Source: Candidatus Omnitrophota bacterium
GTDB lineage: Bacteria; Omnitrophota; Omnitrophia; Omnitrophales; Aquincolibacteriaceae
Direction: 5' to 3'
DNA length: 64,000 bases
NCBI GenBank assembly: GCA_903884815.1
Contig: CAISGE010000023.1
Location: 252-64,251, forward strand
Under the pieces are notes generated by a model that was not told the DNA's origin, made no database searches, and saw only the letters and a program-made list of their open reading frames with translations. Each line of letters begins with the position of its first letter. Positions within the stretch are counted from its first letter, which is position 1. Of this stretch, positions 198 to 55,908 are shown piece by piece. The translations under genes and the position numbers were made by a program.

Positions 198-1541
198 TCA
201 GCTGCTACTTCCGGTAGAGAGCGCCACAATAGGGAGAAACATGGAAATCACCACGGTCCCGATCACGCCTCCCATAAAAACAAGAAGGATCGGCTCCAGC
301 ATAACCGTCAACCTCGCAAGAAATGTATCGACTTGATCCTCATAATAATTAGCCAGTAGTGTGAGGAATTTTTCCATTTGACCACTTTCCTCCCCGACGC
401 TGAGAAGTTGGGTCATAAAAACAGGGAATAATTTTCGGGCCTCCAACTGGGATCCAAGCCCCTGCCCGCCCTTGATGGCAAGCGCGACTTGCTGGACCCC
501 GGATTCGAGAAACTGATTCTCCACAAGACGTCCACTGATCTCAAGCGCCTGGAGGATCTGCACCCCAGAACGGAGCATGGTGCCAAGGGACCTGGAGAAC
601 CGGACAACAGCGACCTGCATGAGGATGGTCCCGAAAATTGGAAATCCGAGACTCATCATGTCAATTCGGATCTTCATTTTCGGGATCTTCCGGAGATAAG
701 TGATCCCAACACCCGCCAGCACCACAAAAAACACAAGGATCCACGCTTTATACCGGACCACATTACTGACAGCCACCACGATCTGGGTGATAAGAGGCAG
801 CTTCATTTGCTGCGACGCGAAGATCGCCGCGAACTTGGGAACAATAAAAACCAGAAGAAAGATCATGGCTCCCGTAACCGCGACCGTCAGAACCCCGGGG
901 TAAAAGAACGCTGTCGTCACTTTGCTTGTGATCCGCGCCGCAGATTCCTGATAATGAGCGATCTCCTCAAGACATTCCGGAAGTTTTCCCGTGGTTTCCC
1001 CGACCTCGACGAGATTAATCCAAACCCACGGAAAAACTTTCCCTTGGGCACGAAGCGCCTGGCTGAAATTCCCCCCCTCCGAAATCTTCTTGCGGATATT
1101 GGCGATAACAGCTTTGAAATAGACGTTCGTGATCCCTTTTTGAATGATCTCAAGCGCACGGAGAAGCGGAACCCCGGCCCTCAGGAGCGTTGAAAGCTGT
1201 ATCGAAAGAAAAATGAGCTCCCGGGTCGAAACAGTTTGAAAAAGGGAAAAGGGCTTCCCATGTTGGTGCGAGGACTTTTTCTTGGGAGAGATCTGCCGAG
1301 ACAGGGCCTCAAGGAACGCGAAGGGAGACTCCTGGGCCCCTCCTGTTTTTTTGACGGAAATGACCACGTAGCCATCCGCCATCAGTTTCTGGATCGCATC
1401 CTCCTGATTCCCGGCCTGGACCACAATGCTTTTAGACTGATCCGGAAAGGCGCGGAGACGAACATGGCATTCAAAAGAATGGCCCGTGTTCTTGGACTTG
1501 TCTTTCGAAGAAACCGGGTGCTCGGGACTATTCATAGGCAA
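198..1541 (-). CDS. pilC: Type IV pilus/T2SS inner-membrane platform protein PilC/GspF
   Basis: 447 aa with tandem GspF-type domains and three TM segments; N-terminal cytoplasmic domain aligns with the second GspF in this window (51735-52955). Start overlaps the pilB stop by 14 nt. Confidence 0.85.
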   Translation of the reverse strand: MPMNSPEHPVSSKDKSKNTGHSFECHVRLRAFPDQSKSIVVQAGNQEDAIQKLMADGYVVISVKKTGGAQESPFAFLEALSRQISPKKKSSHQHGKPFSLFQTVSTRELIFLSIQLSTLLRAGVPLLRALEIIQKGITNVYFKAVIANIRKKISEGGNFSQALRAQGKVFPWVWINLVEVGETTGKLPECLEEIAHYQESAARITSKVTTAFFYPGVLTVAVTGAMIFLLVFIVPKFAAIFASQQMKLPLITQIVVAVSNVVRYKAWILVFFVVLAGVGITYLRKIPKMKIRIDMMSLGFPIFGTILMQVAVVRFSRSLGTMLRSGVQILQALEISGRLVENQFLESGVQQVALAIKGGQGLGSQLEARKLFPVFMTQLLSVGEESGQMEKFLTLLANYYEDQVDTFLARLTVMLEPILLVFMGGVIGTVVISMFLPIVALSTGSSS

Positions 1542-6176: not shown

Positions 6177-7763
6177 TTAATCACCCACGATGCTAAAGCG
6201 GGTCATGGACCGCTCCCGGATCTTTTCGCGACTAACATCTTCCAGCTTGATTTCCGAATAATAGTCGGACAGGATCTTCCGGGAGGCAAGCGTTTGGACC
6301 CAGCCGCTTACAACATTCGTTTCCTTCTCGGCGCTTCCCAGATAACACACGCCCTTCAAGGTCAATTGTTTTCCACCTTTTTTACTTTTCTTTCCTTTTC
6401 GCCCGCTACTTACACTCCCCTCGGGAGGAGGCATACTCTCTGCGGGAGACGCCTCCGATCCTCCCCCTCCCCCTAAAGATATCTGGTCCAGTGCAATGCT
6501 CAGAGGCAACCCTTGTCCCAAGACGGACAACAAGGCCGAGGGGGATTCTTTGGTCTGGAGAAATGCTCCCAATTGTTCGATGCGGGGGTTCAGCGCATCT
6601 TTTTCGGTCCTAAGCTCCTGCATGGATTGAGACATGAGCGAGGGATTTTCGAGAACCGCAGGACCCAGGATCGCAGCATTCTCATTTTTAAGATTCGTCA
6701 AAATAGGCTGAAAGATCACAAGCCGGGCCAAGGCAAAAAGGATCGCGAGAATGGCGCATTCCACCGCCAGGAACGTCATTATTTTAACAGGCTCAGACTT
6801 GCGATCCTCTTTGGGAAGAAGTTTGATATCCCCCAGAGGCGAGGGATAGTTCAAGGACCGGAGCGCCAGCCCAAAAGCCACGAGAGCCGAATGAAGGACC
6901 TCTGGCGGAATATTTTTTTCATCGGGAAAACTTGCGCTGTCGAACCGGATCGTATAATTAAAAGCATTTTCCAGATGCTCGGCCCACAATTTCAGGTCCC
7001 CGGCCCCCGCTAAAAAGATCTGCGTCAGGACCTCTCCGCCTGTCAGTTTGAAGAAGTAATCGATCGAAGCCCGAAGTTCATCGGTAAAACGGCTTTTATC
7101 TTCGTCCGAGTTCCAGCTCAGTAAAAAATCCCTCGAGAGGTAAACGATGCCATTAGAGGCGAAAGTCACATGCACATTCCCATCAGACTGAAGGACCACA
7201 AAACCCTGGGTCTTGACCGTCGTCAACATGCGAATGGCGGAAAATGCGCGGCCGACGGCACAATAGACCGGCTCGATCATGAGCACCTTCGCGGACGCCG
7301 CGCGCAAGTCGTCAAGGCTGGTCTGAAGCACTTCTTGGCGTATCGCCGTCACGGTGACAGAACTCACGTTCTTGAGGGTCACGCGTGCGTTGTAATCCAT
7401 GATGGAATCAGAAAGTTTGAACGGGATATACCGGGTAGCCTCGTTGAGGATCGCACGGGACTCATCTTTTTTCGGGATGGCCGGCATAACAAAATGCCGG
7501 GTGGCTACCAAAGAAGGACTGACCGCGGCCGTCACGAACGAACCCTGCTCGTGGATCTTTTCAAGAACCTTCCGTATCGCCAGGGCCTCCGGGTTCAATG
7601 GCTTGTGCTTACTTCCCCCAGCGTCCTCGGGAGATTCCTCCGGAGCCCCGGCCTGGATAGGTTCGGAAGCGAAGGCTTTGATCTGCGGTCCTGCGGCCGT
7701 CCGGACCGCAGAAACAGCGATCACCTCGTTACGACCGATATAAACCCCGACGCCTTTTGACAT
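6177..7763 (-). CDS. pilM: PilM-PilN fusion protein
   Basis: N-terminal ~330 aa actin-like PilM fold, then a TM helix (IMTFLAVECAILAILFALARLVIF), then a PilN-like periplasmic coiled-coil domain. A single 528 aa ORF. Confidence 0.7.
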   Translation of the reverse strand: MSKGVGVYIGRNEVIAVSAVRTAAGPQIKAFASEPIQAGAPEESPEDAGGSKHKPLNPEALAIRKVLEKIHEQGSFVTAAVSPSLVATRHFVMPAIPKKDESRAILNEATRYIPFKLSDSIMDYNARVTLKNVSSVTVTAIRQEVLQTSLDDLRAASAKVLMIEPVYCAVGRAFSAIRMLTTVKTQGFVVLQSDGNVHVTFASNGIVYLSRDFLLSWNSDEDKSRFTDELRASIDYFFKLTGGEVLTQIFLAGAGDLKLWAEHLENAFNYTIRFDSASFPDEKNIPPEVLHSALVAFGLALRSLNYPSPLGDIKLLPKEDRKSEPVKIMTFLAVECAILAILFALARLVIFQPILTNLKNENAAILGPAVLENPSLMSQSMQELRTEKDALNPRIEQLGAFLQTKESPSALLSVLGQGLPLSIALDQISLGGGGGSEASPAESMPPPEGSVSSGRKGKKSKKGGKQLTLKGVCYLGSAEKETNVVSGWVQTLASRKILSDYYSEIKLEDVSREKIRERSMTRFSIVGD

Positions 7764-28099: not shown

Positions 28100-28173
28100 T
28101 GGAGCGAGTGGAGGGAATCGAACCCTCGTAGCTGCCTTGGCAAGGCAGAGCATTACCACTATGCTACACTCGC
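28100..28173 (-). tRNA. tRNA-Gly (anticodon GCC)
   Basis: Manually folded cloverleaf: acceptor GCGAGTG/CACTCGC, anticodon loop TTGCCAA, T-loop GGTTCGATTCC, discriminator U, CCA encoded. Confidence 0.8.
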
Positions 28174-28223
28174 TTGTCAGATGAGACCTGCGATTCTCGG
28201 GAGGCCGTATTCTAGTCCCAATA

Positions 28224-28280
28224 CTTATCAATTTCAACTTTGTTGAAATTGGGGCTATCCTTGTCACCATTTGAAAAACA
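28224..28280. repeat. Conserved ~60-nt motif CCCAAT(A/C)CTTATCAATTTC-hairpin-CTTGTCACC (copy 1)
   Basis: Second copy at 33421-33486 with the same flanks and a hairpin at the same position whose stem differs (CAATTTCAA/TTGAAATTG versus ATTTC/GAAAT). Confidence 0.4.
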
Positions 28281-28344
28281 ACAATGAACAGGGATAGAAG
28301 TGCGTCCTACCTTTGTCAAATAAACTGCCGACATCGATTCGAAA

Positions 28345-28517
28345 TGCGGCCGGAGGGACTTGGCGCCTCCGCTTCGCTACGGTCGGCCACCCGTCCCGCA
28401 CTTATGACATAAGTCATAAGTGCCAGCGGGACTCCCTTCAAGTCCCTCTTCCTTTGCATCGCCGTAGGCAGTGGTCCTTCTACTGCCACGGCGTCGTACT
28501 TGTTCATGGAGAACAAG
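28345..28517. repeat. Duplicate of the tRNA-Leu 3' end plus a ~150 bp hairpin-containing repeat element (copy 1)
   Basis: TGCGGCCGGAGGGACTTG (28345-28362) is an exact 18-bp repeat of the 3' end of the adjacent intact tRNA-Leu (28518-28535). Body contains a 10-bp perfect inverted repeat CACTTATGAC-ATAA-GTCATAAGTG and the shared motif GGCGCCTCCGCTTCGCT(A/C)CGGTCGGCCACCCG. Confidence 0.5.
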
Positions 28518-28599
28518 TGCGGCCGGAGGGACTTGAACCCCCATCCCTTACGGGACAAGATCCTAAGTCTTGCGCGTCTGCCAGTTTCGCCACGGCCGC
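28518..28599 (-). tRNA. tRNA-Leu (anticodon TAG)
   Basis: Acceptor GCGGCCG/CGGCCGC, anticodon loop CTTAGGA, long variable arm, T-loop GGTTCAAGTCC, discriminator A; CCA not encoded. Confidence 0.8.
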
Positions 28600-28621
28600 A
28601 AAAACTTAGCAAAGAAAAAAG

Positions 28622-28790
28622 TGCGCACTGAAGAAGTCGGCGCCTCCGCTTCGCTCCGGTCGGCCACCCGCGCCATAAACATGACCCCCGTCATGTTTAT
28701 AATCAGCGCTCCCTTCGAATCCTTCAGCACGAAGTGCAGTGGTCGCAGAGGGCTTTCTCTAAGCCCTCACGGCACCGCCTGATCTTCATT
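28622..28790. repeat. Repeat element copy 2, beginning with a tRNA-Lys-3'-end-like fragment
   Basis: Left end AAAAAAGTGCGCACTGAAGAAGTCG resembles the tRNA-Lys 3' end (AAAAAGTGCGCCCTGAAGGAGTCG). Shares the GGCGCCTCCGCTTCGCTCCGGTCGGCCACCCG block, an 11-bp inverted repeat ATAAACATGAC-CCCCG-TCATGTTTAT, and CCCTTC…GCAGTGGTC blocks with copy 1. Confidence 0.45.
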
Positions 28791-28814
28791 AATTTTCCAA
28801 TAGAGATCAGTTCT

Positions 28815-28853
28815 GTCCTGGCTTCTCATAAAAACTATATTGAAAGCCAGGAC
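28815..28853. repeat. GTCCTGGCTTC…GAAAGCCAGGAC hairpin motif (copy near tRNA-Lys)
   Basis: A 9-10 bp stem recurs at 21786-21826, 28815-28853 and 31633-31667 with loops of different sequence. Confidence 0.5.
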
Positions 28854-28875
28854 GTACTTATTCAGCAAGAAAAAG

Positions 28876-28948
28876 TGCGCCCTGAAGGAGTCGAACCTTC
28901 GACCCAGTGATTAAGAGTCACTTGCTCTACCAACTGAGCTAAGGGCGC
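28876..28948 (-). tRNA. tRNA-Lys (anticodon CTT)
   Basis: GCGCCCTTAGCTCAGTTGGTAGAGC…; anticodon loop CTCTTAA, T-loop GGTTCGACTCC, discriminator A. Confidence 0.8.
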
Positions 28949-29143
28949 AAAACTTATAAAGACACCAAAAAATATTCCCGACAGCTCATTCCGCACCGTG
29001 GGTTTGAGCGCCAAAGAGCGGGTATTGTACTCAAGAAGCCCCGATTTTACAAGAAAGGGATTTGTGGTTTTTTTTAACACCTCCAACCGATTCGTTGGTT
29101 GCTTTTTGACTTCAAAACCTCATAATACGCGGGAGGAAATCAT

Positions 29144-53599: not shown

Positions 53600-55908
53600 G
53601 GGGTTGGCTCCTTATTCGCTTCACAGAATTTCACTAAACGGTGTCTGTCTTCACTATGAATGGCGAGAAAGGAAGCACCGACGCGCCGAGGTTCTGCGCT
53701 TCCCGGGGCTACGGGGGGATGGGTCACTCTAAGTATTTTGACCATCGCCATACATTCCACGGGCTTTCCTCCATCTCGAATCAGGATCTTGAGATCCAGA
53801 ATGGTCCCGGATTCAAAGGTTTTCCCAAACGCGTAGGCCCCGGCATCACCCCCCGTCTGTTTTTCAGCAATCTTCGGATCATCAACTGAAAAATAAATCC
53901 CTCCGGCGCTAAGATCCCGGGCATGACCTTGGAACTCAAAGGCGGCGAGCTTTGCCTTTGCCGGAGAACTCAGCGGCATGATCCCTTTATACTCAATGAT
54001 CCTGAAGGTCACGGGGACATCGCAAGCCACCCGCTGAAACTTTCTTAAATTCGTAAATTGGAAACCCTGCGTTTTCTGGGAGGGCGGCGTCCCGGCGGCA
54101 AGGGCCGGGGGAATCCTTGACACACCCTGTGTCCCCGCGTCACGAACGGAACCTTCGGAGAGCTCGCCTCCCGGGTTTTCCTCTAGTAACTCAAGCCTGT
54201 CTTCCTCCGTCGTCTCCAGAACTTCTTCGGGGGTCGTCACACCCGCAAGAACCTTCTCCCAGCCGCTAAAACGAAGCGAGGTCATCCCCTGTCGGGTGGC
54301 CGCAAGTTTGATCGTCTCAGCCGTCATTCTTTCCATGATGAGTTTCCGGATCTCCTCGGTCAGAGGCAGAAATTCATGGATCGCGATCCTCCCGCGAAAT
54401 CCGGTCTGATTGCATTCCTCACAACCAACCCCTCGAAAAACACGGATGTCTCCTTGAGGGATCCCGTATTCACTCTCGATCAACTTCTTGATCTCCGGAG
54501 AAACTTGCATATCCTCCGCTTTACAGTGAGGACAAATAACGCGTATCAAACGCTGCGCGATAAATGCCACAACACTCGACGCGATCAGATAGGGCTCCAC
54601 CCCGATATCGAGAAGGCGCGTGACACCGCTCGCGGCATCGTTCGTATGCAACGTGGAGAGGATCAGATGACCCGTCAGCGCGGCACGAATAGCGATATCC
54701 GCCGTTTCCAGGTCCCGGACCTCGCCCACCATCATCACATCGGGATCCTGGCGGAGCATACTGCGGAGACCGTTGGCAAAGGTCAATCCGATCTCGGGCG
54801 CGACATGAATCTGGCTGATGCCTTCCAACTCATATTCCACGGGATCCTCGATCGTGATGATCTTCCGCCCCGGGATATTCAACCTGTTGAGCGCCGCATA
54901 AAGGGTGGTGCTCTTCCCGCTTCCCGTCGGCCCCGTCGCAAAAATGATCCCGTTATTCCGCCCCAGTAGCTCTTCAAGAAGCTTCTGATGTCTTGGCTCA
55001 AAGCCCAGCTCTTCCAGCTTGAAGATATTCTTTCCGGGCAGAATGCGAATGACGACGCTCTCGCCGCTTGCGGTAGGAATAAAAGACACCCGGAGATCCA
55101 AGGTCTCGTCCAAGGTTTTGACCCTGAGCTTCCCATCCTGCGGCAATCGTTTTTCGGCAACATTCAGATTCGCCATGATCTTGATGCGGGAGAGCATCGG
55201 CGCGAAAAAATCTTTCAACTCCCGAGGGACGGGAGCCTCCTGCAAAAGACCATCCACTCTATAGCGCAGCCGGATGCCCGAAGGCAAAGGCTCCAGATGG
55301 ATATCGCTAGCCCTCCGTTTATAGGCATCCAGAATGATCTGGTTAACCACATGAGCCACGGAGGGAGCCGCAGCGAGCTTTTCGATATCCTCAACCTCTT
55401 GAGCTGTGGAGACTGCCACATGGCGGTCTTGCGCCGGGGTTTCGGAAAGGATTCTCTCGACGGTATCGGCCGCCAGTCCGTAATAGCGCTGCAGCATTTC
55501 CGCGATCTCGTGCTCTGAAGCAAAGCACACTTCAATGTCAAAACCCAATGCAAAACGAACCTCGTCAAGCGTATGGATATCCAGAACCCGGGAGCTTGCG
55601 ATAAGGAGCTTCCCGCCCTCCAGGCGGACGGGGAAAAACTTGTAATACGAGGCGAACTTTACCGGCACCCGTTTAAAAATAGAGATATCGGGCGTCGTCT
55701 TTTTTAAACTTATAACCGGACAACCGGTCTCTTTAGAGAAGATCTCCAAAAGAGCATCCTCCTTGAGAAGCCCGGCCTCAAGAACAAGATGCAAAAAGGG
55801 TTGCCCGGAGTGCTCCGCTTTTTTAAAGATCTCCTCAATCTTCCCCTTGGGCAAGACCCCCGAGTTTAAGAGGATCTTGTAGGAAGCCCTGTCCGGAGCG
55901 ATTTTCAT
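53596..55908 (-). CDS. gspE: T2SS ATPase GspE with C-terminal PilZ domain fusion
   Basis: 770 aa: T2SSE_N domain, Walker A GPTGSGKST, tetracysteine CPHC…CEEC, then an extra ~200 aa carrying RKFQR (RxxxR) and DLSAGG (DxSxGG) PilZ motifs. Confidence 0.85.
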   Translation of the reverse strand: MKIAPDRASYKILLNSGVLPKGKIEEIFKKAEHSGQPFLHLVLEAGLLKEDALLEIFSKETGCPVISLKKTTPDISIFKRVPVKFASYYKFFPVRLEGGKLLIASSRVLDIHTLDEVRFALGFDIEVCFASEHEIAEMLQRYYGLAADTVERILSETPAQDRHVAVSTAQEVEDIEKLAAAPSVAHVVNQIILDAYKRRASDIHLEPLPSGIRLRYRVDGLLQEAPVPRELKDFFAPMLSRIKIMANLNVAEKRLPQDGKLRVKTLDETLDLRVSFIPTASGESVVIRILPGKNIFKLEELGFEPRHQKLLEELLGRNNGIIFATGPTGSGKSTTLYAALNRLNIPGRKIITIEDPVEYELEGISQIHVAPEIGLTFANGLRSMLRQDPDVMMVGEVRDLETADIAIRAALTGHLILSTLHTNDAASGVTRLLDIGVEPYLIASSVVAFIAQRLIRVICPHCKAEDMQVSPEIKKLIESEYGIPQGDIRVFRGVGCEECNQTGFRGRIAIHEFLPLTEEIRKLIMERMTAETIKLAATRQGMTSLRFSGWEKVLAGVTTPEEVLETTEEDRLELLEENPGGELSEGSVRDAGTQGVSRIPPALAAGTPPSQKTQGFQFTNLRKFQRVACDVPVTFRIIEYKGIMPLSSPAKAKLAAFEFQGHARDLSAGGIYFSVDDPKIAEKQTGGDAGAYAFGKTFESGTILDLKILIRDGGKPVECMAMVKILRVTHPPVAPGSAEPRRVGASFLAIHSEDRHRLVKFCEANKEPTP

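Follow-up and report, generated by a model that had tools for sequence, protein, structure and literature searches.

Two copies of a hairpin-bearing repeat, each associated with a copied tRNA 3' end, lie within a cluster of tRNA genes in the 64,000-nucleotide stretch of Omnitrophota DNA analysed here (the window), and the question raised by this locus is what these repeats are and how they came to lie there. An initial inspection made without database searches (the sequence-only reading) had offered minimal or decayed integrative elements, or alternatively a family of tRNA-targeting miniature elements. Both repeats proved to be members of an extensive family of short, non-coding elements situated directly 3' of tRNA genes in Omnitrophota and related uncultured bacteria; of the proposed alternatives, that of tRNA-targeting miniature elements is upheld. 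The family is apparently new to description, as no account of it was found in the literature.

Two elements in a Lys-Leu-Gly tRNA cluster

The cluster consists of tRNA-Lys(CUU), tRNA-Leu(UAG) and tRNA-Gly(GCC) (Table 1). As the tRNA genes are located on the minus strand, each element lies 3' of a tRNA. The tRNA-Gly of three relatives (L012, L020 and L027) does carry an element. No promoter or terminator was found on the tRNA strand in the stretch from tRNA-Lys to tRNA-Leu, so element 2 is probably part of the Lys-Leu transcription unit. Identical sequence is also present in the independent assemblies L002 and L003.

The exact duplication of the 18-mer TGCGGCCGGAGGGACTTG noted in the sequence-only reading was reproduced (28345-28362 and 28518-28535; 0.01 matches expected at up to two mismatches), as was the 32-nt block GGCGCCTCCGCTTCGCTNCGGTCGGCCACCCG common to both copies (28362-28393 and 28639-28670), for which no match is expected in 100 shuffles, even at three mismatches. 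Each copy further contains a perfect hairpin of 11 bp (28398-28408/28413-28423 and 28675-28685/28690-28700). The fragment resembling the end of tRNA-Lys is likewise real, with 28616-28639 being 92% identical to 28870-28893, but it does not form the beginning of the element: in the sense of the tRNA, the copied tRNA end constitutes the 3' end of each element, and the boundaries have been corrected to those of Table 1.

Table 1 Coordinates of the tRNA genes, promoter-like sites and element parts in the window
Feature	Coordinates	Strand	Basis or details
tRNA-Gly(GCC)	28100-28173	minus	ARAGORN, Rfam; without element here
Promoter-like site of tRNA-Gly's own	28237→28209	minus	
Element 1, whole	28345-28517	minus	
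Element 1, X'	28345-28361	minus	3' strand of P1
Element 1, core	28362-28436	minus	J1/2 GGGAG 28432-28436; P2 hairpin 28394-28431
Element 1, core, remainder		minus	J2/3 28389-28393; P3 28362-28388 with GCGAAGC apex
Element 1, X, GAGGGACUUGAA	28437-28448	minus	Inverted repeats, 100%
Element 1, 5' domain (module A)	28449-28517	minus	hp1 28499-28517, GTACG, hp2 28460-28495, linker
tRNA-Leu(UAG), host gene of element 1	28517/8-28599	minus	ARAGORN, Rfam
Element 2, whole	28622-28875	minus	
Element 2, X'	28622-28638	minus	3' strand of P1
Element 2, core	28639-28713	minus	J1/2 GGGAG 28709-28713; P2 hairpin 28671-28708
Element 2, core, remainder		minus	J2/3 28666-28670; P3 28639-28665
Element 2, X, includes GAA	28714-28730	minus	Inverted repeat 93% and fold; 5' strand of P1
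Element 2, 5' domain	28735-28875	minus	hp1-like hairpin 28857-28875, GTACG, hp2 28739-28776
tRNA-Lys(CUU), host gene of element 2	28875/6-28948	minus	ARAGORN; Rfam tRNA 73.6 bits
Promoter-like site upstream of tRNA-Lys	29024-29052	minus	

Each element also possesses an internal segment antisense to the T-loop and T-stem, termed X, which had escaped the sequence-only reading. Element 1 X is the exact reverse complement of tRNA-Leu positions 54-65 and provides the 5' strand of helix P1, while its X' reproduces positions 57-73 of the same tRNA exactly over 17 nt, or 18 nt including the shared C56. Element 2 X is antisense to the T-loop, the 3' T-stem and part of the acceptor of tRNA-Lys. Its X' reproduces tRNA-Lys positions 57-73 over 17 nt with two mismatches; at one of these, a G-to-U change replaces a G.G mismatch opposite X by a G.U pair. 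The similarity to tRNA-Lys runs a few nucleotides into the downstream flank. The 5' domain of element 2 holds two additional AT-rich hairpins (28815-28853 and 28779-28810) that are missing in its orthologues L026 and L027. A covariance model built from relatives assigns the two window copies 117.5 and 108.9 bits, the next best match within the 64 kb reaching 16.9 bits.

A tRNA-linked family with a covarying fold

Covariance-model searches yielded 102 matches in 79 loci. The association with tRNA 3' ends suggested from two copies is general: 82 of the 102 copies lie behind a tRNA on the same strand at a distance of up to 260 nt, four stand in tandem behind another copy and 13 are found at contig ends, so that 86 of the 89 testable copies follow a tRNA or another copy. 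Among the three apparent exceptions, one lies behind a tRNA that a group I intron interrupts, another behind a degenerate tRNA. In total, 29 isoacceptors are occupied, and most tRNAs of a given genome carry no element. About one third to one half of the pattern matches in metagenomes represent unrelated coding sequence. Seven genome matches (Bradyrhizobium, Anaeromyxobacter, Lachnospiraceae and others) were discarded as chance, comprising only a 23-nt block without the architecture and scoring below 22 bits.

The elements are 100-250 nt long, non-coding, and located on the tRNA strand. Read in the tRNA sense, they open with a 5' hairpin module, which is optional, and continue into a core shaped as a three-way junction, in which X, GAAGGGAG, the variable hairpin P2, the conserved helix P3 and X' succeed one another. 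X pairs with X' to form P1, and the near-invariant GAAGGGAG makes up J1/2. P2 is a variable hairpin or multi-hairpin domain with at least three architectures, whereas P3 combines a conserved base and a tandem G.A platform with, usually, a C(GNA)G apex. Across copies, the apex of P3 varies from 0 to more than 50 nt. An alternative P3 register proposed by RNAalifold was dropped in favour of the model that holds the covarying pair described below; assignment of P3 as a k-turn was rejected, with no 3-nt bulge adjoining the tandem G.A; and a tRNA-like minihelix (GUGGCCG with the Leu acceptor tail) fails for other tRNAs.

In an alignment of 27 sequences, 95.2% of the cells are paired and compensatory changes occur at 20 of 32 pairs, a level reached by none of 500 shuffles; controls with slid registers gave 35-40%. 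One P3 pair is G-C in 46 copies and U-A in 15, with no exception. The 'compensatory-like' difference between the two window hairpins thus proves, in the alignment of relatives, to be genuine covariation. The tRNA-sense strand gives the better core fold in 54 of 59 copies (p ~1e-10), and this asymmetry, together with the covariation, is what is expected of a structured non-coding RNA in the generic sense. Folding with DNA parameters also succeeds (z -4.9 and -3.0), and folding therefore does not discriminate between RNA and single-stranded DNA. Among 29 P2 apical loops there is no GNRA or UNCG, and P3 is capped by a GNA triloop, a motif that is unusually stable in DNA; the loops are not typical of RNA. 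In the outer pairs of P1, A.C mismatches are as numerous as G.U pairs, so this part is not under strand-specific structural selection. An Rfam scan, which had been proposed, matched only the tRNAs at the gathering threshold: no family of Rfam 15 (hammerhead, twister, pistol, hatchet, HDV-like, group I and II introns, tmRNA or tRNA-like) matched the elements, and nothing credible overlapped them at E values up to 10.

Across the family, X is the reverse complement of positions 54-65 (T-loop and 3' T-stem) of the adjacent tRNA, and X' is a 17-24-nt duplicate of its 3' end. The 5' boundary of X' is constant at T-loop position 57, while its 3' boundary varies, lying at the discriminator, at CCA or roughly 6 nt farther on. 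TTC or GCC invariably precedes the junction. The first nine nucleotides of X' equal the local tRNA tail in 42 of 47 copies, and X' including the acceptor part left unpaired by X is tRNA-identical in 41 of 47, the flanks having diverged. X pairs with its own X' at 88.7%, compared to 74.8% with the X' of other copies and a maximum of 78.3% in 500 shuffles, and this preference extends to unusual T-stems. A 'born perfect, then decays' model predicts poorer outer P1 pairing in copies whose X' tail has drifted; we observed no such correlation (rho -0.14, p 0.35), although drifted copies are too few for a proper test. At one locus (L009), the distal copy pairs perfectly with the 5' acceptor strand of the tRNA, whereas the proximal copy gives a U.G wobble; on the basis of this locus, it may be argued that the distal copy is the original tRNA end.

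Site occupancy and the origin of the elements

Orthologous Lys-Leu-Gly clusters differ in the presence of the elements. The spacer between tRNA-Lys and tRNA-Leu measures 20-27 nt in L020 and L009; the window, L026 and L027 have 196-275 nt here. Beyond X', these are orthologous to the spacer of the empty sites, and the junctions are precise. The Leu and Gly sites are likewise occupied in some relatives and empty in others. Such pairs of empty and occupied sites with precise junctions support insertion, although the pattern could in principle stem from deletions. One candidate empty site, on a contig of the same species (L001), was set aside, as it represents a 277-bp block-to-block deletion or collapse that removed tRNA-Leu. 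Tandem arrays are present in L007, L020, L033, L082, L087 and L113, and some copies are truncated or interrupted. Elements that occupy the same tRNA in different genomes are more alike than those at different tRNAs within one genome and have diverged by compensatory changes, which looks like long residence under selection in place rather than recent bursts. The Lys and Leu sites exchange P2 types from one genome to another.

Our preferred interpretation, to which we assign a probability of roughly 0.5, is that the elements are non-autonomous, structure-dependent, site-specific insertion elements homing to the T-loop and 3' end of tRNA genes. We infer insertion rather than deletion and postulate that an element would enter at C56/R57 with its own copy of positions 57-73, by which the tRNA would stay intact, while the host's original 3' end would be pushed to the far side and become X'. 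The target would be chosen by pairing of X with the T-arm, the T-loop portion of which is common to all tRNAs. The reaction would presumably take place on a folded single strand, either transcript or single-stranded DNA, with a catalyst encoded away from the element and acting in trans, and the inserted element would be co-transcribed with its tRNA. A fold built partly from a copied tRNA tail points to a hitherto unrecognized way of targeting tRNA genes without harm.

Several observations run against insertion. No catalyst was found in the window or recurrently near copies; a displaced and useless host end should drift, yet the acceptor part of X' retains its identity in 41 of 47 copies; and the clustering of copies by tRNA looks like that of elements long resident in place. 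The lack of strand-specific structural selection on the outer P1 pairs is a further point against it, and neither a free or circular form of the element nor a solo active one was seen. Retro-insertion primed by mature tRNA was considered unlikely, most junctions being without CCA.

A more radical version, in which the element is mobile without any protein gene of its own and its folded strand performs the targeting and possibly the chemistry, strikes us as quite improbable. Here X would be a programmable guide for the T-arm of the tRNA or its gene, and the three-way junction would serve either as the catalytic centre of a small ribozyme of a new kind or as the handle for a new recombinase guided by RNA or ssDNA. 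Cutting and rejoining would occur at C56/R57, where P3 abuts X' without a linker, and units would spread as terminally redundant or circular monomers, which would account for the arrays in tandem and for the sharp limits of the units.

The elements might instead be cis-acting RNA domains of tRNA precursors that benefit the host and are inherited vertically with rare gain and loss, for instance 3' trailers that aid or regulate the processing, folding or turnover of the cognate tRNA, with the tRNA's own 3' half and X' competing for X. We regard this as unlikely. It would explain the compensatory changes that preserve structure among orthologous copies, the sense-strand specificity of the core, the transcription of an element within the Lys-Leu unit that the locus seems to necessitate, the persistence of tRNA identity (41 of 47) in a part of X' that X does not pair, and the grouping of copies by tRNA type across genomes. 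It fits poorly with the differing occupancy of Lys, Leu and Gly among close relatives that share the cluster, with the occupation of 29 isoacceptors while most tRNAs per genome lack an element, with tandem, truncated or interrupted copies, with the exchange of P2 types between Lys and Leu sites, and with loops that include neither GNRA nor UNCG in P2 and a GNA triloop in P3.

Direct repeats extending from the T-loop to the tRNA 3' end are the classic footprint of tyrosine integrases crossing over in the T-loop, and the elements could accordingly be what remains, in minimal or decayed form and with attL and attR fused, after a phage or island integrated at a tRNA gene, as the restored tRNA would allow. 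The varying length of the repeated segment can be read either way: it is in keeping with such remnants, and the absence of a fixed end, with the segment starting at position 57 and stopping at the discriminator, at CCA or some 6 nt past it, was also counted against an integrase footprint. This origin appears very unlikely. A Pfam scan of the window ORFs found no integrase, transposase or reverse transcriptase, and clustering of neighbouring genes revealed no mobility gene family recurring near copies; together with a Pfam batch of 132 neighbouring ORFs, in which no integrase occurred among families matching at least two members, it returned only synteny and housekeeping genes. The core was absent from 2.9 million viral contigs (two patterns), 50,697 phage records and 72,556 plasmids (blastn). 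Furthermore, one conserved core accompanies 29 different tRNAs, and what is conserved is a single-strand fold with covariation rather than double-stranded protein-binding sites. Remnants would also decay, whereas these copies do not: compensatory changes keep the strand-specific core fold, and X' matches the local tRNA, so the term 'decayed' used in the sequence-only reading does not apply.

An independent origin at each tRNA, by tandem tRNA duplication and decay or as a tRNA pseudogene, could draw on the tRNA sequence at the 3' end of each element and on the tRNA-Lys similarity continuing into the flank. However, the non-tRNA core (GAAGGGAG and P3) is the same at 29 unrelated tRNAs, hence the copies share one origin and this explanation is effectively refuted; the Rfam tRNA model moreover matches the true tRNAs only and not the element body, and X is antisense, which is beyond what duplication can produce. 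Chance similarity or an assembly artefact, for which the repeat-mediated difference of the L001 contig could be cited, is refuted by the zero matches expected in shuffles, the identity between independent assemblies and more than 100 homologous copies in unrelated assemblies.

tRNA genes are classic landing sites for mobile DNA. To our knowledge, every known insertion into them depends on an integrase or transposase encoded by the element. The present family is tiny and gene-less, occupies at least 29 tRNAs, and combines a target-matched antisense segment, a replacement tail and a fold conserved across candidate phyla. If mobile, it would imply either guide-based targeting of tRNAs, a reprogrammable 9-12-nt recognition of interest for genome engineering, or the hijacking of a host enzyme that would work on folded single strands. 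If a host RNA, it would add a new class of structured RNA, linked to tRNAs, from uncultured phyla about which little is known. In both cases, it closes a gap in catalogues of the Rfam type. The elements also explain unusually long, repeat-rich tRNA spacers, which can make assemblies collapse and drop tRNA genes, as in L001.

Comparison with known systems

In their target, the elements resemble the phages, ICEs and islands whose tyrosine integrases act in the T-loop; 'sublocation' classes of tRNA-gene integration were reportedly distinguished by Williams in 2002. Like the present family, these elements target the 3' portion of a tRNA gene, generate a repeat from the T-loop to the 3' end, keep the gene functional through a replacement tRNA end, and may form tandem arrays; the direct repeats flanking the insert and the intact tRNA expected of integrative elements are both present here. 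In contrast, our elements span only 100-250 nt, have no coding capacity and no viral or plasmid counterpart, serve 29 tRNAs with one core, and possess a strand-specific covarying fold with an antisense T-arm copy in its interior; no integrase gene was found in the window or recurring near copies.

Integron attC sites and the attP hairpin of the CTX phage are, as the family would be, recognized on one specific strand by fold and not by sequence, and occur as arrays of units. A stem of two inverted 'core' segments that mimics the double-stranded target and a variable, sometimes branched apex are further points of resemblance. The target of the family is, however, the tRNA T-arm and not attI or dif, its P1 strands are derived from tRNA (RANYCC...), with the R''/R' consensus of attC (RYYYAAC...GTTRRRY) not evident by eye, and neither cassette ORFs nor an IntI-like or other integrase gene recurs near copies.

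The PATEs of IS200/IS605 and REP/RAYT elements are similarly small, non-coding and hairpin-rich, lack terminal inverted repeats and act as single strands, with internal 'guide' bases pairing to the cleavage or target site and a transposase supplied in trans. Hairpins and strand specificity are seen in the family, and its junction follows TTC or GCC; insertion 3' of a short conserved motif would be expected of such elements. PATEs and REPs recognize only 4-5 nt and produce no long target duplication, whereas X pairs over 9-12 nt and the 17-24-nt tRNA tail is a target repeat foreign to them; no Y1 (HUH) transposase or RAYT was seen in the window or the flanks examined. MITEs derived from DDE transposons differ as well: their terminal inverted repeats have no counterpart between the left end (CTTGTTC...) and the right end (...GGAGGCGCC), as X with X' is the sole inverted repeat at long range, and the varying 3' boundary of the repeat departs from a target-site duplication of fixed length.

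The order of stem I (X':X), an 8-nt strand, stem II, a 3-nt strand and stem III recalls the hammerhead ribozyme, as do the absence of a linker between element and X' and the T-loop UUC/R, which fits the NUH/ rule. The core reads GAAGGGAG and GGU in the family, compared to CUGANGA and GAA in the hammerhead. Retrozymes and R2 elements with HDV-like ribozymes likewise include host-derived sequence in their fold and form tandem units; the HDV-like ribozymes of R2 pair with flanking rRNA, and such carriers are co-transcribed with a host RNA gene, as the family probably is. They are set apart by the lack of any Rfam ribozyme match to the elements at E up to 10 and of a reverse transcriptase among the genes searched. 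Finally, sRNAs of tRNA 3' external transcribed spacers, such as E. coli 3'ETS-leuZ, are functional RNAs residing in the 3' trailer of a tRNA and freed by processing; these are single-locus RNAs, in contrast to a family that joins duplication of the tRNA end with a structured core common to different tRNAs and with insertion polymorphism.

Two elements behind tRNA genes

The two elements of the window, E1 and E2, are to be read in the minus sense, as their tRNA genes lie on the minus strand; trigger factor, ClpP and more housekeeping genes follow downstream of the three tRNA genes. In the tRNA sense, each element begins directly after its tRNA and finishes with a copy of that tRNA's tail. The tRNA-Lys-like fragment that the sequence-only reading placed at the start of an element is genuine (92% identity) and constitutes its end. 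The 18-mer of the tRNA-Leu end indeed occurs twice and exactly (0.01 matches expected), as does the 32-nt block common to both elements (0 expected in 100 shuffles). Both elements contain a perfect hairpin, as reported, each of 11 bp, including the one previously counted as 10 bp.

A repeat search revealed, inside each element, an inverted copy of its own tRNA's T-loop and 3' T-stem strand (inverted repeats I3 and I8, 100% identity; I2, 93%). Both elements are composed, in the tRNA sense, of hp1, hp2, the antisense segment X, GGGAG, the variable hairpin P2, CGGGU, the conserved helix P3, and the tail copy X'. X is antisense to tRNA positions 54-65, and X' corresponds to positions 57-73. P2 is a perfect hairpin in both, and P3 is formed by GGCCGACCG(U/G)AGCGAAGCGGAGGCGCC. 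On the tRNA strand, E1 and E2 fold as a three-way junction closed by the X:X' helix, P1 (z = -5.3 and -3.9). An Rfam scan returned no family for either, even at E up to 10.

A module of ~65 nt between tRNA and core (module A) comprises hp1, GTACG, and hp2 with CGUGA...CUACG, often ending in CCGCA. It is present in about half of the copies, resulting in a bimodal tRNA-core spacing of about 10 and about 70 nt. As it is also found by itself behind tRNA or X' ends, and in one case within a tRNA-Gly leader, module A may be an independent mini-element. E2 additionally contains ~78 nt of AT-rich sequence with a pair of hairpins; this segment looks like a nested insertion because it is missing from the orthologous Lys-site copies in loci L026 and L027.

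Features of the window and of compared genome or metagenome loci (L numbers)
Feature	Position	Strand	Remark
tRNA-Gly(GCC)	28100-28173	minus	ARAGORN, Rfam
tRNA-Leu(UAG)	28518-28599	minus	ARAGORN, Rfam
tRNA-Lys(CUU)	28876-28948	minus	ARAGORN, Rfam
E1	28345-28517	minus	behind tRNA-Leu
E2	28622-28875	minus	behind tRNA-Lys
AT-rich segment	28779-28853		in E2
tRNA-Gly leader	28209-28320		
Module A, examples	28449-28517; L012:2301-2381; L016:~6791-6860; L026 upstream of tRNA-Gly		
277-bp deletion	L001:4905-4940 vs window 28362-28670		E2 fused to E1
Expanded P2, Ratteibacteria type	L006:2349-2540; L008:57-248; L017:5790-5998		
Group I intron	L128:6100-6359	minus	
Interrupted X'	L023:~284-336		second tandem copy
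Rejected model match	55680-55778	minus	
Rejected GAAGGGAGUGGUGCUCUCG...CCCCGGGGUGGCCCACCG loci	L038, L055, L057, L076, L080, L096, L101, L104, L107, L111, L116, L141-L143		

Distribution and conserved fold of the family

The element family is real and widespread. Metagenome contigs of the same species (L002, L003; identical ClpP) carry the exact same sequence, and the window's closest syntenic relatives (L013, L026, L027) are annotated as Omnitrophota. Scanning one genome per species for the exact pattern yielded 26 loci, 19 with the full architecture, all from Candidatus Omnitrophota, Ratteibacteria or unnamed MAGs. A gapped pattern yielded at least 119 loci in JGI metagenomes, with true copies in the majority of matches listed. 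More than 12 metagenome loci sharing GAAGGGAGUGGUGCUCUCG...CCCCGGGGUGGCCCACCG were rejected as chance pattern matches, with no nearby tRNA and no element architecture; they probably represent a conserved coding region.

A covariance model built from 27 diverse copies detects exactly two copies in the window (117.5 and 108.9 bits); the next match, a weak one (16.9 bits, E 0.03) within a type II/IV secretion ATPase gene, was judged to be noise. Among the matches listed, the model finds 102 copies in 79 genome and metagenome loci, behind at least 29 isoacceptors: for 82, a same-strand tRNA lies ≤260 nt upstream, while 4 follow another copy in tandem and 13 are found at contig ends. The earlier proposal of a tRNA-targeting miniature element family is thereby borne out. 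At first sight, the other three lack a tRNA: one is solo (L129), one is preceded by a degenerate tRNA-Ser (L131), and at L128 the preceding tRNA contains a group I intron (Rfam, 83 bits), so that two different structured insertions occupy one gene.

We tested an explicit fold model on the 27-sequence alignment, with P1 of 9 bp, P2 with a 4-bp base and an 11-bp inner stem, and P3 consisting of GGC/GCC, one N:N pair, CC/GG and an apex. In this model, pairing extends to 95.2% of cells, and both sides have changed in 20 of 32 pairs; none of 500 shuffles attains any measure, and slid controls reach 35-40% pairing. The RNAalifold register for P3 fails in one subfamily and was rejected. Among 61 unique copies, one P3 pair alternates without exception between G-C (46 copies) and U-A (15 copies). 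Parts outside the search patterns are still conserved: for the genomes this applies to the P1-P2 joining strand J1/2, for the metagenomes to the P3 3' strand, X and X'. The length of the P3 apex varies from zero (CC-GRA-GG) to more than 50 nt, and P2 adopts at least three architectures. Ratteibacteria-type copies have a P2 of ~130 nt with three or four hairpins, each repeating CGAC-GARNA-GGAGC, a tandem G.A pair with a pentaloop, whose recurrence suggests a protein-binding or tertiary module.

In 54 of 59 copies, the core fold is more stable in the tRNA sense than on the opposite strand (Wilcoxon p about 1e-10). Since promoter-like sites in the window's tRNA cluster occur only upstream of tRNA-Lys and tRNA-Gly, and no terminator was found on the tRNA strand of the Lys-Leu stretch, E2 must, on these predictions, be transcribed. 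The tRNA-Gly leader shows strong cross-species conservation with TTGACA...TAGAAT-like promoter elements, from which tRNA-Gly and tig appear to form a transcription unit separate from Lys-Leu; it also holds a CAAUUUCAAC/GUUGAAAUUG hairpin. The folded molecule may be RNA or single-stranded DNA. The transcription of E2 speaks for RNA, as do the tandem G.A platforms, which are best known in RNA and form in DNA too. Against RNA, GNRA and UNCG loops are absent from the 29 P2 apices. The usual P3 apex, GCGAAGC, is a C(GNA)G triloop, known as a DNA mini-hairpin of unusual stability, and DNA folding parameters likewise give significant folds.

Occupied and empty tRNA sites

X' starts at T-loop position 57 in every case, the C before it being shared with C56. 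Of 47 copies, 42 match the local tRNA over the first 9 nt of X', and 41 over the following 7 nt, which belong to the acceptor strand. The 3' limit varies (discriminator, CCA, or about 6 nt beyond), and the repeat is therefore not a fixed-length target-site duplication. The six junction-side X:X' pairs are formed in 90-100% of copies and pairs 7-9 in about 75%; X pairs with its own X' at 88.7%, compared to 74.8% with partners shuffled among copies, and the match is kept for unusual T-stems, e.g. of tRNA-Met, tRNA-Trp and tRNA-Ser. In outer P1, A.C mismatches (43) and G.U pairs (45) are about equally common, and no strand-specific selection is therefore evident there.

The Lys-Leu-Gly cluster is kept in eight species. 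Its Lys-to-Leu spacer is short in L020 (20 nt) and L009 (27 nt) and measures 196-275 nt in L026, L027 and the window; in the long spacers, element and X' are followed by a stretch orthologous to the short one. Six of the eight species have an element at the Leu site, L024 and L026 being the empty ones, and at the Gly site only L012, L020 and L027 carry one. This variable occupancy speaks for insertion, and the exchange of P2 types, tandem arrays, and truncated or interrupted copies do so as well. P2 types swap sites: at Leu, the window's copy carries the P2 found at Lys in L024 and L027, and the window's copy at Lys has the P2 of the Leu copies in L012, L013 and L027. Tandem arrays have unit boundaries at X', and truncated and interrupted copies were also found. 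In one tandem pair, the second X' is split (GATTCC and CTCCACTCGCTCCA) by an unrelated ~52-nt insert.

In L009, the distal tail copy pairs perfectly with the tRNA 5' acceptor strand (U5-A68) and the proximal copy forms U5.G68; in L012, a relative of L009, both copies have A68. This one case is consistent with a T-loop crossover by which the incoming element would bring a new functional tail and displace that of the host. L001 is shorter by exactly 277 bp, the spacing of the two P3 blocks, and has lost tRNA-Leu(UAG). As this deletion spans block to block, L001 is ruled out as an empty site; we read the deletion as the product of recombination between the two copies or of their collapse in assembly. 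Because the form is found in at least two assemblies of the same species with identical ClpP (L001; contig pc7By17q), it may be a real population variant and not an assembly collapse.

Possible nature of the element and known systems

We postulate, at a probability of roughly 0.5, a non-autonomous, structure-dependent insertion element. It would home in on tRNA genes at the T-loop and 3' end, recognise them by X, whose T-loop part fits every tRNA, bring a replacement tRNA tail, and be processed in trans as a folded single strand. Decayed integrase footprints, as formerly suggested, find no support: the window's larger ORFs, most of them secretion/pilus, housekeeping and TPR genes, showed no integrase, transposase or reverse transcriptase, and we found no non-syntenic gene family recurring near copies and no mobility enzyme among Pfam families matching at least 2 of 132 neighbouring ORFs. 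Nor was the core found in IMG/VR contigs, GenBank phages or PLSDB plasmids. The main alternative, that the element is a host-useful 3'-trailer RNA domain, seems unlikely to us. In its favour are the long-lived orthologous copies evolving by compensatory changes, the tendency of copies to group according to their tRNA, and the X' acceptor part, whose conservation is unexplained because X leaves it unpaired. The insertion-element and host-domain readings are compatible, since both feature sets are to be expected of a mobile element that is domesticated or 'addictive'. Self-catalysis or a new guide-dependent recombinase is more doubtful still.

The family is missing from Rfam 15 and from the literature searched, in which queries including the core sequences themselves found no description; there is a real chance that it is categorically new. 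As regards self-catalysis, its junction topology is hammerhead-like (X':X stem, 8 nt, stem, 3 nt, stem, cut-like boundary, zero linker) and its UUC|R would conform to the hammerhead NUH| rule, but its core sequences differ from those of the hammerhead. With integrative elements it has the tRNA-tail logic in common, and it differs from them in size, coding capacity, structure and internal guide.
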